From contig CP154954.1 in assembly GCA_039621445.1 (NCBI GenBank), forward strand, positions 20,694,642-20,758,641: a stretch of DNA of 64,000 nt, given 5' to 3'. The position numbers and the translations under genes were made by a program. The DNA is from Euglena gracilis. Its lineage: Eukaryota. Position 1 is the stretch's first letter; the number at the start of each line of letters is the position of its first letter. Below are positions 1 to 60,400 of the stretch, in pieces. The notes beneath the pieces are model-generated. The model ran no database searches. It saw only the letters and a list, made by a program, of their open reading frames with translations, and had not been told where the DNA came from.

Positions 1-3000
1 CCGTCCCTCTCCTGCTGTTGGCTTTTGAGGACACGTCGTCGAAGGTCCGTTTTCAGGATCGGATGGGCTCGTCCTTACATGGTCCGACATGAGAAGGGCC
101 CCACCCCTCCTTTGCTACCACCCCCCATTTTCCTTCAGCGAATAACGAAGTCAGACAGTTCTTATGAGGACAGATCAGAAAGGAGAAGAGGACATTTTCC
201 TCAGATCAGAGTAAAGAAGGTGAAATTTCCCAGGGTTCAATGGCCATGGATTCACTAAACTCTCAAGCCTAGTGTAGCTTCGCTTGGGCCAATGTATTTT
301 TTGTGGATCGGTTTGTGCCTCTGAACACAAAAGTATTCCACCCCAGAATGCTACGCCAGAACTTCGGCAGTGATTTTTTTGGGGGAGTAGGGTCGCTGGA
401 TGGGTCGTGGGTGAACGGCTCTTCAATAAAGTGGGGTTTTGGTGGGTTGCAGCTTCGGTATGCAAAGTTCCCCCTCGAGTCACCACGCAAATGAATGGCC
501 CATGAATGGTCGCAGAGTGGTGAATGAATGGCCCACCAAATGAATGGTCGCCTTTACTTTCAATTTACCCATGTTAGCAGGTACACAGACAGAGGACAGT
601 GTCTGGGGGGGGGGGTCGTCTGGAGAATATTTTCCTGGAGGGGGTTGGGGGAATAGCACCAATGGCGTAAGTTGCCGCCCACATTTCACCCCATGGCTGG
701 TGGGGGTCCAGGCTGACCTCCGCATCCTGTCCGTGCGGAAGGGGCGATGCAGGCCACGGCTGTTGAGGGCGGCCATTCCACCCTGGCCATCAAGGGGACG
801 TTCTCCGCCACCGGGCGCAACTCCCTCAAGCCCAGGGCTCGGCAGTGGTTCCGTGCAGAACCTTGTCGCATAAGTTGTGTTCGAAGGGGCTAACCCATCT
901 GCTCAAACCCTCGCGTCGGTCTGTGCGCAGGACACGAGAAAATTCTGATTTGTTTCGGCCCCGCTAATGAGGCGACAGCAGGGTGGTGGCTGCGACCGGG
1001 GAAGTATTGTTCCAGTGTCCATTTGGGTAATTTGGGTGACGGCAAAAATGTGAAATGTGAAAATGTGGGGGTGCCGGCATTACAACGAAATCATGGCACA
1101 TTTGGCCTCAAACCAGAGCGCTGTCGGGTTCTTCCGCTTTGGGAACGGGCTCCAAATACGATGCCGACTCCTGCGAGCGCTTCGGCTGGAGGGCCTAGAC
1201 CCCTGCGGCCCACTGGCGCTGGGCGTTTACCCCGCCGACACCCCCGCAGCCCTATTGGATGCCCATGGCTGACAGCCGCCGGCATCCAATGCGGCGGCCA
1301 TGTGTGACCTTGGGTGCTGCCCCGCACCACCCCCCTTCGCCCACCGACCACCCCTAAACAACGACCCCCCCCCCGTCGGGGGTTGCAGGTCGGGGGTGTG
1401 AAAGACCCTCCCCCTGGTGGGCGGTGTAGGCGGCTTTGAAATTTGGGCCCTGGCCGTCCCTGGTCGGGGGTTGTAGGAAACAGGTCTGTGAGCAAAGGGG
1501 GGGGGGAGTGGGTGCTCGCCATTGTCATTTTGTTTGCGTGTGCTGGGGCTCATGGCCAGGGCGGTATTGGAACACTGGCCGACCCCCGCCCCCGCCCCCG
1601 TCCTGGTGGGTATGGGGGGTCCGACCCCCCACAAGGCATTCCTACATTCCTGGGGTCGACATATGCAAAATCAAAGTTTCCTTCGGCAAATTCATTTTCG
1701 CAGGGTGCAACGGTGGGTGAGGGGGCGGTTGACCCACCCCCTTCACCGCCCAGGTGGAGTGGGTTGGGCGTCCAAACCACACCAGGCTTTCCCACAGCCC
1801 TGCCGATGGTTTGGATTTGTTGCAGTCGAGACCTGTCCTTGTTGCGCAACTTTTTTTTCTGCCAAAAAAGAAAACTGTACTCCTGTTTGCCGCAGTTTGT
1901 CCCTCTCATGGGCGTGCTGGCCATGCCCACAACCATTACGTCGGAGGGGAGGGCCTGCCCGACAGCATTGGCCTGGTGTGCACCGGCGACACGTGCCAGC
2001 TGTTCAGCTCCTCCCGGGGCCTCACCCATGGTGTCTGGTGGACGGAGTTTGTGCAATCGGGTCTCATTTGCGAATGGCTGATGTCTTTGCCATGTCTTCG
2101 AAGGTTGTGTCCCCCCCAATGCCGCTGCCCGACAAAGGAATGCTTTGAAAACCAGCCTCCCCCCCCCCCCAAAGCACCCGAGATTACTGACAGACGGCGA
2201 TGTTACATCCCTGACGGTATGCACCATCTCTTGGGCCCAAGTTTTGGTGTTGCCGGGGGGGGGGTAGGGTTCTTGCCAGCCAGCTTTTCAATTTCCAGCC
2301 CCCAGCTTTCTTCGCCCCAGCTGCACGGAGCCATTTTCTTTCTTTCGGGTTTAGGCATTATGGACCCTTGTTTGCCGTCAGCTTGTTGACGTCACCCACC
2401 TGGGGGGACGGGGGTTGCACCCTGTGGGCAGGGAGGGGGGGAAATATGCACCGTGAAGGTTTTGCGGTTTTTTGCAGTTTTCACGTTTTGGCTTTTTTGC
2501 AGTTTCTTGCAGGGTTTTTTTGCAGTGTTTGTGAAAAAAGTGTGGGATACGTCCCGATCGGCGCGGTGCTGCGCCAGGGGTTTGCCTGGCCGGCCGGCCG
2601 GGGGCGACTCCGGCCCCAACGAGCCATTCGGGGACAGCGGCAGTGGCCCGGCGTTGGGGGACACGCTGGAGGTCGCGGTGGAGGACGGCATGGTCACCTT
2701 CGCCGTCAATGGCCAGCCGCACGGGGCGGTGGCCATGCATTCACTTAACCAGGGAGTTTCTTAAGCCCGGCCCCACCCAACCCGGGAGGGGGGTCCAGCC
2801 AGCCAGCACCTTTTTTCTAACCAGCAGCTCCCGGCTGGGCTGCGAACTCCCCCCCCCCCGGGGTTGAATGGAAATTCAGCTTTCGCAGCCTGGCAAAGCC
2901 GGGCTGGGTGGAGAAGATTTCGGCGCAAAGTGCCGACGGTTTTGAACATGGGGGTCAAAGTCGGCCGAAAATGGCCAGTTTTGCTACTTTTTGGGGTTTT

Positions 3001-57400: not shown

Positions 57401-60400
57401 TTTCGGCCCAAAAACAATTTTTCGGGTCTGGGAGGTCAAAAAAAAAATGGTTTTGGGCAAAAAAAATTTGCGAATTTTTTTTTGACTTTTTGACCCAAAA
57501 ATGGCTAAGTACACCGGAGGTCCTCTTTACTTTTCCTCAACTCCGCAGCGTTTTCGAGATATTTTGAATTTTCGATTTTTTGACCCCCAAAATCACCCTG
57601 CAATTTCCCCGGGGGAAAAAAATGGTAGACAAGTTTTTTTCTTTTGCTCGGGGCATATCTCCGGACTGGCGGGGAGTTGCGGGTAACCTAAGGGTTCTGG
57701 AGAAACTAGAGATCGTCCCCTTACCTATAGGCTATTCACTTTGGGAGCCAGGAAGTCCAATCACATCGATAATCCTCGGGTGTCTGGACCTACCGGGGGG
57801 GGAGGGGGCGGGGGGTCGTCGCCGGGGTGAGCTCAGCGACCAGGGTGTGACGTAGAGCTGAGCTCTTTGGGGATGCCTAAAAAGCGGTGCGGCACCGCTG
57901 GGGCACCGCTTGACACCGCTTGACGACAAACTTTGCTTTTTTTAGGGGAGGCCGTTGCAATATTTTCTTGATGGTGTGCACGATAAGTTGTCAGACGTTA
58001 CAATTTTTTAAGCGTGATTGATCGGGTTGATCAAATAATTTTGTCAGACGTGTATATGTTTCCCACAAAGGAATCACCTGGCCAAAGGTTCCCAGCCAAG
58101 CGGTGTCAAGCGGTGCCCTAGCGGTGCCGCACCGCTTTTTAGGCATCCCCTTTGGGAGACCACCTCGGCCCGGACCGGCCCGGCCCGGCCGGCGGCCCGG
58201 CGGCCCGGCCCGGCCCGGCCAGCGGCCCGGCGGCCCGGCCCAGCCTGGCCGGCGGCCCGGCCCGGCTCGGCCCGGCCCGGCCGGCGACTCGGCCGGCTGT
58301 CCAGCCCGGGCCGGGGACGGGGGGTTGAAAAACGCTTATTTTCGGCTCAAAAACAGTTTTTCCAGGTCCGGGAGGCCAGAAAACACCGTTTTGGGCAATT
58401 TTTTTTCGACTTTTTTGACCTGGGTTTGACCCCGAGGTCCATAGGATTCGGGCCCAAAACGGGGCGCCGGCGGGTCAAAAAAAAAAAACGCTCATTTTTT
58501 GCTCAAAAACACCTTTTCCGGGTCTGGGAGGTCAAAAAAACATGGTTTCAGGCAAAAAAAAATTCAGATTTTTTTCCAACTTTTTTTGGCCGAAAACGGC
58601 GAAGACTGACAGTGGAAAAAGTGTACAAAATGTCCCAAATTGGCCGAAAAACTGCCGTATCTTGGGGAGTTGCGGGGAAATCAAAACACCGGTAGATGGG
58701 GCCTTCCAAGGGCTTCAAATTAGCTCTGCGGATATTTCCTTTGATTTGGCTTCATTTTGGAGATATTTTGAAAACATTGATTTTTTGACCCCCCCACCCC
58801 CCGAAAACGGTCGGACAATGGAAAAAGCAAAACGGCCATCTGGGCCGAAAAACGGCCGTATCTCGGGCTAGGCGGAGAGTTGCGGGAAAATAAAAACACC
58901 GGTAGATGGGGCCTTCCAAGGGCTTCAAATTAGGTCTCCGGACATTTTTTTTCAACTCCCCACCATTTTGGAGATATTTTGCAAAAACTGTTTTTTTGGC
59001 CAGTATTGGCTCCAAATGGCAGAGTCCCCCCCCTGGCGAAACCACAAATCGGCCATAACTCGGCCCAGGCAGGGAGTTGGCCCAAACCGTGCATACCGGT
59101 GGATAGGGCGTCCCAAAATTGTGGAATGAGGTACCCTTTTACTTTTTCTCAACTCCCCAGCGTTTTTCGAGATATTTTGAATTTTTAGATTTTTGACCCC
59201 AAAAATGACCCCTTTTGCCTGTCCAATGAAATTTCTTTGGGAAAAAACCGGTAGACAACTTTTTTGCTCGGGCCATATCTCCGGACTGGCGGGGAGGGCA
59301 AAGTGAGGGCTCTGGAGAAATTAGGCATCCTCTCCTAACCTATAGGCTATACACTTTTCGGGTCTGGAAATCAGGTCACATCGATAATCCGCGGGTGCCA
59401 TTGCCTACTCAGGGGGGGGGGTGCGGGGGGCAGGGGGGGTCAGGGGGGTTTGGGGGAGTGTTAAGCTTCGCTCTTACTCTAAAGAGATAAGAGCTCAGCG
59501 ACCCCCCCAAAATTAGACCCCCCCCCCAAATAAGACCCCCCAAAATAAGGCCTCCCTGGGCCGATCGAGCAAAATAAGACCCCCCAAGAATAGGACCCCC
59601 CTGATGGCGCGAAGTGCCGGGGACGTGACAATTTTCCCTGAAAAATTGCCAAAACAATTTCATTCACAAAAATGATGAATTTTCAAAATTTTCAGATTTT
59701 TCAAGTGCAAAAAACATGGTAAATGTCAACACACGTGGTAAATGTCATTAAATATGTCGCGGACCGTCCATACTATGCAAACCATGCAAACGCGCGCGCG
59801 TGTGTGCTGTGGTGGCACCGCATCGACGTGATTACGTGCCCCCCGTTCTTCGGACGATGGATACTGGGAGCAGGGGAGGGGGGCGATTGAGTTGGAAAGA
59901 AGAGCAACAAAAAAACAGGTTTGGCCTTTTTTGGTTTTTTTATCCTGCCATTTTCATCAACTTCTGAAATGGTTCCGGCTTAAAACGTTTCGCATTTTGG
60001 ACCACATTTTCCCCTGCAATATTTTTGTGATTGCCAAGAAGCCTCAGGCGGACACCGGGTACGTTTGGAATTCGGAAGTGTCCCCAGGGGGCTGCCAGTG
60101 AAGCTGGTGGCGGACATGGAGGCGTTCGCGCGGGAGGTGGAGACCCTGCAGGCAACGGCTCAACAGAACGCGGTGGTGGCGGAGATCCACCGGCGGGAGT
60201 TGCGGATCTCGGAGCTGGAGGACGAGCTCATCCGGCCGTGGCCCTCGCTGGTGCCCCCCCCCTCATCCCCCCCCCCTGGGAAGTTGTCCCCTTGGGGTGT
60301 GTGTTGGCTGACTTGTGACCCGCCCAGACTTGTTCTGGCTGGTTTGTCAGCTAACAGCCTCCTTGGCAGAGCTTGGTTGGCGTGGTTGGTGTGTTGTGGT

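Follow-up and report, generated by a model that had tools for sequence, protein, structure and literature searches.

Genes and introns at the locus

The window analyzed here, a 64-kb stretch of Euglena gracilis contig CP154954.1, contains parts of two paralogous genes whose introns carry short inverted repeats near their ends, together with MITEs (miniature inverted-repeat transposable elements) lying within those introns. An initial annotation of this DNA had claimed that the introns are cut at offsets that equal a hAT element plus one 8-bp target site duplication (TSD), and had extended this to a general transposon origin of the splicing code. This observation was right in the main; it was partly confirmed, and its interpretation was partly supported.

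With the translation of a 46-residue exon as the query, two E. gracilis transcriptome proteins were found in EukProt, EG_transcript_2083 (P0001; 887 aa, 98% identity to the query) and EG_transcript_755 (P0002; 1232 aa). Both contain MIB_HERC2 repeats and an ADP-ribosyltransferase (ART) domain, and the two genes of the window are paralogous. Exons were placed by tblastn and by an in-house protein-to-genome spliced aligner without a splice-site model.

6 to 34523, + strand: gene 1, 36 exons; 3' part of an EG_transcript_755 paralog, equivalent to P0002 residues ~355 to 1232
38490 to 53211, + strand: gene 2, 16 exons and 15 introns; P0001 residues 1 to 405; contains MIB_HERC2 module C

Gene 1 encodes MIB_HERC2 modules A and B, a SAM-like region and the ART domain. 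Removal of its introns is probable from its identity to the paralog P0002 (~92%, by eye) and from its 876-codon frame, which is open once the gaps are removed. In gene 2, 414 of 420 aligned residues are identical to P0001, a spurious tail included, and tblastn with P0001 residues 1 to 405 gave 100% identity for most exon matches. The transcript-derived P0001 fits the joined exons, indicating that the gene 2 introns are gone from the mature mRNA. The other 482 residues of P0001 were not found downstream within the window (53212 to 64000).

The mapping yielded 15 + 35 gaps. Three doubtful gaps were dropped, leaving 47 evaluable introns:

23928 to 24690, + strand: doubtful stretch, two gaps around a dubious 16-nt exon (24585 to 24600); outside all counts
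20835 to 20855, + strand: 21-nt gap, likely an exonic insertion; outside all counts

A run of ~319 A residues (23926 to 24244) lies inside gene 1 beside the poorly supported exon and could be a retroposed tail.

Intron geometry and the terminal helix

For each gap, all protein-preserving joint shifts of the two junctions were listed, and a shift that places a helix at +4/-6 was sought. This register (N3/N5; helix start at +4, helix end at -6) was reachable in 42 of the 47 evaluable introns. Among the 42 registered introns, 41 have 6 or more of their first 8 positions paired, and a one-base shift of a spacer leaves 0 to 4 of 42, a difference that arises partly by construction. Pairing stops abruptly at +4:-6, and the spacers are unpaired both with each other and with the exons. 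The first base of the downstream exon is a purine in 42/42, a feature independent of the register setting. When the best helix was searched for without bias, at offsets of 0 to 14 on either side of the aligner junctions, 32 of 49 introns fell on the N3/N5 diagonal (+x pairs with -(x+2)), compared with 17.7% of mismatched ends. GT-AG borders at a protein-compatible junction were found in 0/47; a GC-AG reading is also possible for two introns (38549 to 38639 and 17222 to 17558). The triplet pattern CDG/CH'G fits 22 of the 42 registered introns, and the other 20 keep the geometry with other paired triplets (TGA/TCA, CGC/GCG, CAC/GTG, GGA/TCC and more). These introns are of the usual nonconventional kind already described in euglenids.

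In the lists below, triplets are those at +4 to +6 and -8 to -6, and octamer identity is the number of matches between the 8 nt before +4 and the 8 nt after -6.

Introns of gene 1
G1.1, 51 to 734, +: N3-CAG/CTG-N5; octamer 5/8 (TCCGT repeat); the protein alignment favors 53 to 733 (one extra codon, out of register)
G1.2, 830 to 1178, +: CAG/CTG; octamer 3/8; one base right of the alignment junction (K for T)
G1.3, 1261 to 1930, +: CAT/ATG; octamer 2/8
G1.4, 2012 to 2617, +: CGG/CCG; octamer 5/8
G1.5, 2731 to 3206, +: outside N3/N5; best helix 8 and 9 nt from the ends
G1.6, 3276 to 3693, +: CAC/GTG; octamer 2/8
G1.7, 3745 to 4533, +: GGA/TCC; octamer 4/8
G1.8, 4562 to 4702, +: 141 nt; GGG/CCC; long stem, MITE-like shape; octamer 2/8
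G1.9, 4757 to 5545, +: CAG/CTG; octamer 6/8 (GCCACT repeat in register)
G1.10, 5627 to 5886, +: out of register
G1.11, 6040 to 6391, +: TGA/TCA; octamer 3/8; homologous to 14705 to 15102 and 47424 to 47865
G1.12, 6425 to 7646, +: CAG/CTG; octamer 2/8; contains MITE 7294 to 7408
G1.13, 7718 to 7846, +: 129 nt; CAC/GTG; module A only; octamers 7/8
G1.14, 7905 to 8753, +: AAG/CTG, closing pair mismatched; octamer 4/8; homolog of 48781 to 50097
G1.15, 8835 to 9990, +: first pair mismatched, then 10 bp; octamer 4/8; homolog of 50176 to 50678
G1.16, 10030 to 14135, +: CAG/CTG; octamer 5/8; contains MITE copies 10901 to 11306 and 13314 to 13558
G1.17, 14219 to 14556, +: CAC/GTT; octamer 4/8
G1.18, 14705 to 15102, +: TGA/TTA; octamer 3/8
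G1.19, 15136 to 15682, +: CAG/CTG; octamer 2/8
G1.20, 15804 to 17065, +: out of register
G1.21, 17221 to 17557, +: CAA/TTG; octamer 2/8
G1.22, 17593 to 17902, +: CAG/CTG; octamer 3/8
G1.23, 17971 to 19292, +: AGG/CCT; octamer 1/8
G1.24, 19375 to 20786, +: CAG/CTG; octamer 4/8
G1.26, 20893 to 23107, +: CAG/CAG, middle pair mismatched; octamer 1/8
G1.27, 23188 to 23874, +: CAG/CTG; weak stem; octamer 3/8
G1.30, 24785 to 26189, +: CAT/ATG; octamer 2/8
G1.31, 26246 to 26681, +: CAC/GTG; octamer 1/8
G1.32, 26699 to 27309, +: not N3/N5; N3/N6 if moved to 26698 to 27308; preceded by a 17-nt micro-exon
G1.33, 27410 to 31325, +: CAG/CTG; octamer 1/8
G1.34, 31387 to 33182, +: CAG/CTG; octamer 6/8; 8 nt right of the alignment junction, equal length; matches P0002 '…AF' better
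G1.35, 33287 to 34423, +: CAG/CTG; octamer 5/8

Introns of gene 2
G2.1, 38549 to 38639, +: 91 nt; CGG/CCG; 14- to 16-bp stem, MITE-like; octamer 6/8
G2.2, 38717 to 40039, +: CAG/CTG; octamer 1/8; contains MITE 39717 to 39975
G2.3, 40174 to 40740, +: CAG/CTC, outer pair mismatched; octamer 5/8
G2.4, 40759 to 41599, +: CAG/CTG; octamer 2/8
G2.5, 41693 to 42055, +: out of register; spacer sum 7 (N3/N4)
G2.6, 42178 to 43213, +: CAG/CTG; octamer 2/8; alternative acceptor 43810 in the duplicated copy
G2.7, 43868 to 44910, +: CAA/TTG; octamer 2/8; start 43271 with the first exon copy
G2.8, 44924 to 45743, +: CAG/CTG; octamer 2/8
G2.9, 45819 to 46526, +: CAG/CTG; octamer 5/8; contains MITE 46007 to 46310
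G2.10, 46604 to 47275, +: CGC/GCG; octamer 0/8
G2.11, 47424 to 47865, +: TGA/TCA; 10-bp stem; octamer 3/8
G2.12, 47899 to 48651, +: CAG/CTG; octamer 4/8; position as 6425 to 7646; contains MITE 48215 to 48524
G2.13, 48781 to 50097, +: CAG/CTG; octamer 4/8; contains MITE 48860 to 49126
G2.14, 50176 to 50678, +: first pair mismatched; octamer 6/8
G2.15, 50727 to 53158, +: CTG/CGG with a G-U wobble; octamer 3/8

The N3/N5 geometry had been described in about 20 introns and was borne out at twice that count. All 13 introns listed in the initial annotation carry CAG or CAT at +4 to +6 and CTG or ATG at -8 to -6, and 10 of the 13 were supported. Seven are fully protein compatible (1261 to 1930, 6425 to 7646, 24785 to 26189, 27410 to 31325, 33287 to 34423, 42178 to 43213 and 48781 to 50097), and three fit only with a one-residue difference from the protein alignment (51 to 734, 830 to 1178 and 31387 to 33182). 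The interval 40168 to 41599 was wrong at its 5' end and is not a single intron. The transcript has 8 more residues, which resolve it into intron 40174 to 40740, an 18-nt micro-exon and intron 40759 to 41599. For the remaining two, no usable homolog was available:

56314 to 56847, + strand: claimed intron with CAG/CTG geometry; only its middle (247 to 450) belongs to a repeat family also present at 51.6, 57.2 and 58.3 kb
57024 to 60099, + strand: claimed intron with CAG/CTG geometry, between coiled-coil-like frames

The coiled-coil frames at 56 to 60 kb had no homolog by word-indexed search, and an exhaustive HMMER search gave one weak match (33% identity, E=8e-5) to a 3433-aa protein. Such frames extend over 55 to 62 kb on the same strand as gene 2 and could stem from a gene nested here, an intron of great length or a mis-join. 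A dispersed repeat family, with copies 74 to 94% identical, occupies 51500 to 52130, 56560 to 56765, 57150 to 57500 and 58170 to 59030; its translation repeats '…RWRVEKRSFSAQKQ.FRVREAKKHRFGQ…'.

Other forms of pairing were compared between the 42 introns and mismatched ends. There was no excess of pairing from +3:-5 to -5:+3, as a helix continuing through the spacers would give (an RNase III-like 2-nt stagger), nor of bulge-helix-bulge-like pairing between the upstream exon end and the 5-nt spacer, nor of exon-exon pairing. RNase III and tRNA-type endonucleases have been proposed for diplonemids (PMC12621601).

Homologous introns in the three MIB_HERC2 modules (6040 to 6391, 14705 to 15102 and 47424 to 47865) share the non-CAG ends TGAAGC…GCTTCA. 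Because these ends were kept in modules that are only ~75% identical, they are conserved. In 7905 to 8753, module A reads AAG where the homolog 48781 to 50097 has CAG, and the closing pair of the stem is broken. Gene 1 may be a silent or decaying paralog (this AAG; ~8% of residues off the nearest transcript), though its frame is open.

Three micro-exons have nonconventional introns on both sides. One of them is the 18-nt exon noted above:

40741 to 40758, + strand: micro-exon, 18 nt (…DLSGCG); exact transcript-derived protein support

The others are 44911 to 44923 (13 nt), also with exact transcript-derived protein support, and 26682 to 26698 (17 nt). A 57-nt exon of gene 2 is present twice within a ~300-bp tandem duplication (43161 to 43457 and 43759 to 44066, 85% identity). 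Both copies encode the same 19 residues, and the CAG/CTG stem formed with the donor at 42178, upstream, is perfect for the first copy only. At the junction of 47899 to 48657, the transcript-derived protein has R. The registered intron 47899 to 48651 requires H, and the alignment's 47905 to 48657 requires Q, a one-base difference between the genome and transcriptome sources.

A 70-bp tandem unit (5.7 copies, 32320 to 32718) with the telomere-like motif GGGTTAGGGT lies in intron 31387 to 33182. Arrays of 36- to 46-bp palindromic units (GCGCAATTGCGCGCATCAAAC…) lie at 28690 to 29200 and 30150 to 30630 in intron 27410 to 31325 and produce many false hits of a terminal inverted repeat (TIR) with a direct repeat.

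An insertion-like intron with an empty site

Gene 1 holds two copies of the MIB_HERC2 unit (modules A and B) and gene 2 a third (module C). Their introns sit at homologous positions, apart from 7718 to 7846, which only module A has; the same exon is uninterrupted in B (15682 to 15803) and C (48658 to 48776). The intron consists of N3 (GAC), a 121-bp element and N5 (GCCGT). The element has a 12-bp perfect TIR, CACACCGTTGCT, with CAC/GTG ends instead of CAG/CTG, and with its flanks and cuts (/) it reads GTCGT/GAC-CACACCGTTGCT…AGCAACGGTGTG-GCCGT/GAC. The flanking octamers, GTCGTGAC and GCCGTGAC, match at 7/8 exactly in the predicted register. The empty site reads GTCGTGAC in module B (near 15750) and ATCGTGAC in module C (near 48719), as a single copy in each. 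Excision of N3, the element and N5 restores the conserved protein, and read-through hits a stop. To judge from the sequence, this intron looks like an insertion with an 8-bp TSD, would be cut where the hypothesis predicts, and is the clear case in the window. At least some introns probably arose as insertions of TIR elements. The earlier claim that the excised interval equals a TIR element plus 8 nt was supported.

MITEs in the window

The four MITEs with perfect 8-bp TSDs that had been reported were all confirmed by scan and direct inspection, with CAG/CAT termini. Three more copies were found (13314 to 13558, 48860 to 49126 and 10901 to 11306).

7294 to 7408, unstranded: MITE, 115 bp; TIR CAGGGTT(C/T)GAT; TSD GTTGAGGG 8/8
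10901 to 11306, unstranded: MITE, longer copy of the 7294 to 7408 family; ends CAGGGTTTGATA…CGAACCCTG; low-complexity flanks (~6/8)
13314 to 13558, unstranded: MITE, 245 bp; CAGGGATTTTTT family; flanks CTATCTAT 8/8, inside a (CTAT)n microsatellite
39717 to 39975, unstranded: MITE, 259 bp; 12/12 TIR CAGGGGTTTTTT; TSD GGGTGGAC 8/8
46007 to 46310, unstranded: MITE, 304 bp; ends CAGGCTTGCGCT… and …AGCACAAGCATG; TSD GACCCGAA 8/8
48215 to 48524, unstranded: MITE, 310 bp; 46007 to 46310 family in opposite orientation; TSD GTCCAAAA 8/8
48860 to 49126, unstranded: MITE, 267 bp; CAGGGGTTTTTT family; TSD GACTCACC/GACTCGCC 7/8

These copies belong to three families with the ends CAGGGTT…, CAGGGGTTTT… and CA(G/T)GCTTGTGCT…, and with TIRs of 12 to 14 bp. 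All seven two-ended copies begin with CAG or CAT, and their flanks match at 8/8 in five, at 7/8 in one, and are of low complexity in one. A strict scan for perfect TSDs gave 3 hits in the window versus 0 in each of 30 block shuffles. All seven copies sit inside introns; by our own reading, 3 of the 7 would conform to the full published splicing code if placed in an exon. Two exact-pattern scans of metagenome contigs revealed no copies outside the window.

Sharing of intron ends with MITE TIRs, as had been expected, was not seen within the window beyond CAGG(G/C). No whole intron was found to be a copy of a MITE family of the window, and no relative of the 7718 to 7846 element was found there. 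These negatives belong with the opposing evidence given below; at 64 kb, the window is too small for the lack of family copies to tell against a transposon origin.

Octamers flanking the terminal helix

The 8 nt before +4 were compared with the 8 nt after -6 in the 42 registered introns, with permuted pairs as the control. Mean identity was 3.26 of 8, compared with 2.76 for permuted pairs (P=0.004). Identity of at least 5/8 was found in 11 introns versus 4.3 expected (P=0.001), and identity of at least 6/8 in 5 introns versus 1.0 expected (P=0.001). The positional excess is confined to -5 to +3 (0.408 versus 0.343 per position), which is also the best 8-nt frame, and is absent at -13 to -6 and at +4 to +11. 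When homologous introns were collapsed (n=33), P was ~0.01. The exon-side and intron-side octamers have a common consensus, with Y followed by R at positions 5 and 6. The excess over shuffled pairs that had been predicted is therefore present within the window and is weaker on stricter subsets; the signal is modest and statistically fragile. The predicted decay of octamer identity with age showed no sign, with stem quality and intron length as proxies.

Transposon superfamily

Classic hAT ends, such as those of Ac, start with CAGGG, and the hAT TIR start is 5'-YARNG; the P superfamily likewise makes an 8-bp TSD. Two of the MITE families start with CAGGG and fit YARNG, and the third (CAGGC/CATGC) does not fully fit. 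The CAGGG start of these two resembles classic hAT ends. The putative hAT origin assigned in the initial annotation is drawn only from TSD length and TIR start. The 8-bp TSD and the short TIRs fit it, as short TIRs of 10 to 25 bp with an 8-bp TSD are the published description of hAT elements (PMC3942097). It is possible, though less likely than not, that the elements are transposons outside hAT, from a superfamily that also makes an 8-bp TSD (Merlin or P, for example). Merlin is the only superfamily that we found reported in E. gracilis with 8-bp TSDs, in the available text of PMC8101967, and this paper was the sole match in a search for an E. gracilis hAT transposase; no paper linking Euglena to hAT transposons was found. 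The term 'hAT' occurs 0 times in PMC11282704 and PMC12501133. The 10 longest non-microsatellite open reading frames (ORFs), out of 202 ORFs of at least 110 aa in the window, gave no Pfam family and so no transposase. Against Merlin, all its TIRs begin with GG according to the same text, whereas all seven MITE copies start with CAG or CAT (CAGGG, CAGGC and CATGC). The CAGGG start of classic hAT ends such as Ac's likewise speaks against a non-hAT assignment.

Origin of the introns

An apparently non-spliceosomal machinery reads the terminal helix of these introns. One of its cuts lies 3 nt upstream of the 5' helix strand; the other lies 5 nt downstream of the 3' helix strand and precedes a purine. 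The 3 + 5 = 8 unpaired nucleotides equal the TSD length of the TIR elements (MITEs) in the same genes. Since the spacers equal the 8-bp TSD, an exonic insertion would be removed as the element plus one TSD copy, and the mRNA would be scarless. The best explanation, which we regard as on balance probable, is that these are known nonconventional introns whose excision window matches the 8-bp TSD, and that some of them were born by insertion. We infer that the agreement of 8 with 8 has a function and is no accident. The geometry, the 8-bp TSDs, intron 7718 to 7846 with its empty site and the modest octamer excess support an origin by MITE insertion without proving it.

Several results weigh against this explanation. 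Five of the 47 introns lie outside N3/N5, one of which fits N3/N6 and four of which do not fit, and two out-of-register introns have a spacer sum of 7 or 9. Only 19 of the 42 registered introns have CAG/CTG triplets. Octamer identity is at most 3/8 in 24 of the 42, and it is uncorrelated with stem perfection and intron length (rho 0.04, 0.03, -0.15). After removal of the 3 to 4 re-registered introns (n=38), the mean gave P=0.07 and the tails P=0.01 to 0.02, and for the 13 introns with exact transcript support the mean gave P=0.32 and identity of at least 6/8 P=0.05. In intron 33287 to 34423, an exact 9-nt direct repeat, CCTGTTGCC, enters the stem by 4 nt, outside the predicted register. No exact transcript for gene 1 was present in the databases searched, and its junctions therefore rest on a close paralog; splicing of 7718 to 7846 is thus presumed from the open frame after its removal. 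For this intron, as long as the history of the modules is unrooted, parsimony favors neither gain in module A nor loss from B and C.

The match could be a coincidence, which we consider doubtful. The 3/5 offsets would then be the ruler of an excision enzyme measured from the helix end and unrelated to any TSD, the shared Y-R step would be the preference of a single nuclease, and MITEs would lie within introns merely because introns make up most of the gene. This would agree with a geometry found across many triplets (TGA/TCA, CGC/GCG, GGA/TCC, GGG/CCC, AGG/CCT) and not with the MITE-like CAG alone, with the three homologous introns that retain non-CAG ends across ancient repeat duplications, with an octamer excess that is small and loses significance on strict subsets, and with the splicing of wholly synthetic introns that obey the code, as described in the available text of PMC12501133. 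It does not account for 7718 to 7846, with its TIR, 7/8 TSD and single-copy empty site in the paralogs, nor for the location of the excess identity in the -5 to +3 frame. Co-resident MITEs, with TSDs of exactly 8 bp and the same CAG at their start, also speak against it, as does the repeat of exactly 8 nt at a young E. agilis intron (PMC4770533, in the part available). That intron was read by Milanowski et al. (2016) in the same text as a trace of double-strand-break repair, and direct repeats of the introns here could likewise have come from break repair or microhomology at intron gain and not from a transposase, with inverted ends selected later for splicing. The variable repeat lengths in the window, including the 9-nt out-of-register repeat at 33287 to 34423, and the 84.4% of E. 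agilis introns, counted over all types including the conventional, that are described as 'slidable' in the available text of PMC12501133 would be consistent with break repair. We regard it as improbable, as it predicts neither a fixed length of 8 nor repeats abutting perfect inverted repeats, as in 7718 to 7846, and genuine mobile families with 8-bp TSDs are present in the same window.

If the explanation by insertion of TIR elements is followed, either causal order may apply: the offsets were shaped by the need to erase the TSD, or a ruler that was already in place filters which 8-bp-TSD elements survive in genes. The general transposon origin of the splicing code that had been claimed is an extrapolation. 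The window cannot tell the direction of cause. A stronger reading, which we hold to be rather unlikely, is that the splicing code is a transposon-erasing device, its offsets tuned to remove exactly the 8-bp TSD of the dominant euglenid TIR transposons. Every exonic insertion, in either orientation, would then be phenotypically silent from landing, which would explain genomes filling with such introns (~72% of E. agilis introns). The spacer sum would track the resident TSD length in other euglenozoans, e.g., hemistasiid diplonemids, and the junction of the excised RNA circle would re-create one intact target octamer between the paired ends.

The match bears on how euglenids came by hundreds of thousands of non-spliceosomal introns and on why their code has a 3/5 asymmetry. 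The equality of 3 + 5 with one 8-bp TSD turns the loose idea of a MITE origin into a quantitative prediction, which can be checked on existing data (649,158 E. agilis junctions, 28,337 E. gracilis introns and strain-polymorphic introns), and an EgGSL2 knock-in assay exists. If true, this would be the first RNA-level excision system to fit the footprint that a DNA transposon family leaves, a parallel to introners but with no spliceosome.

Comparison with known systems

Published statements are given here as they stand in the available portions of the papers. Nomura et al. 2025 (PMC12501133) used knock-in mutagenesis to define the code 5'-N3CDG-/-CH'GN5-6, followed by R, and synthetic introns that conform to this code are spliced; it covers 61.2% of nonconventional introns (PMC12501133). 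The introns of the window share with the published class (PMC12501133, PMC3935182) the +4/-6 helix, the unpaired 3- and 5-nt spacers, the purine (42/42) and the absence of GT-AG borders. They differ in nothing in kind; CDG/CH'G is present in only 22/42, with the geometry otherwise kept.

Both a MITE origin and TSD-like repeats have been published before. The consensus of nonconventional introns and the proposal of a MITE origin were given by Milanowski et al. 2014 (PMC3935182), and the suggestion was repeated in the discussion of the 2025 knock-in paper (PMC12501133). A 2024 review calls the CAG/CTG ends TIRs, applies the term 'TSD-like' to the junction repeats, and describes excised introns as full-length circles (PMC11282704). 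Our analysis shares with these papers (Milanowski 2014; PMC11282704) the idea of origin and the use of inverted ends and direct repeats as evidence. It differs in that no TSD length, superfamily or equality of the spacers with one TSD (scarless excision) is stated in their available text. The link between 3 + 5 and an 8-bp TSD is a real addition that sharpens the published MITE-origin hypothesis, and it is unpublished as far as found. No statement that the spacers sum to one TSD was found in the literature, a search that left supplementary intron tables, possibly with repeat lengths, outside its range, and nothing further was found on nonconventional introns and target site duplications.

Intron 4 of gapC in E. 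agilis ACOI 323 is strain specific, a recent gain, with eight-nucleotide direct repeats at its junctions (PMC4770533). It is a young nonconventional intron with an 8-nt repeat, and 7718 to 7846 resembles it; there, in contrast, the repeat was taken for a trace of double-strand-break repair.

The MITEs of the window resemble hAT MITEs in their 8-bp TSD, 12- to 14-bp TIRs and, in two families, CAGGG ends. They differ in having no linked transposase and in one family with CAG at one end and CAT at the other. With E. gracilis Merlin (PMC8101967), they share the species and the 8-bp TSD but not the TIR start, which is GG in Merlin and CAG/CAT here.

A further parallel is offered by the introners of Micromonas and Aureococcus (Huff et al. 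2016, via PMC11282704 and PMC11170887), in which a DNA transposon and its TSD form a ready-made intron, and splicing takes out the element and one TSD copy. Introners depend on the spliceosome, with one splice site supplied by a 3-bp TSD, whereas excision in Euglena is structure guided and the TSD is 8 bp.

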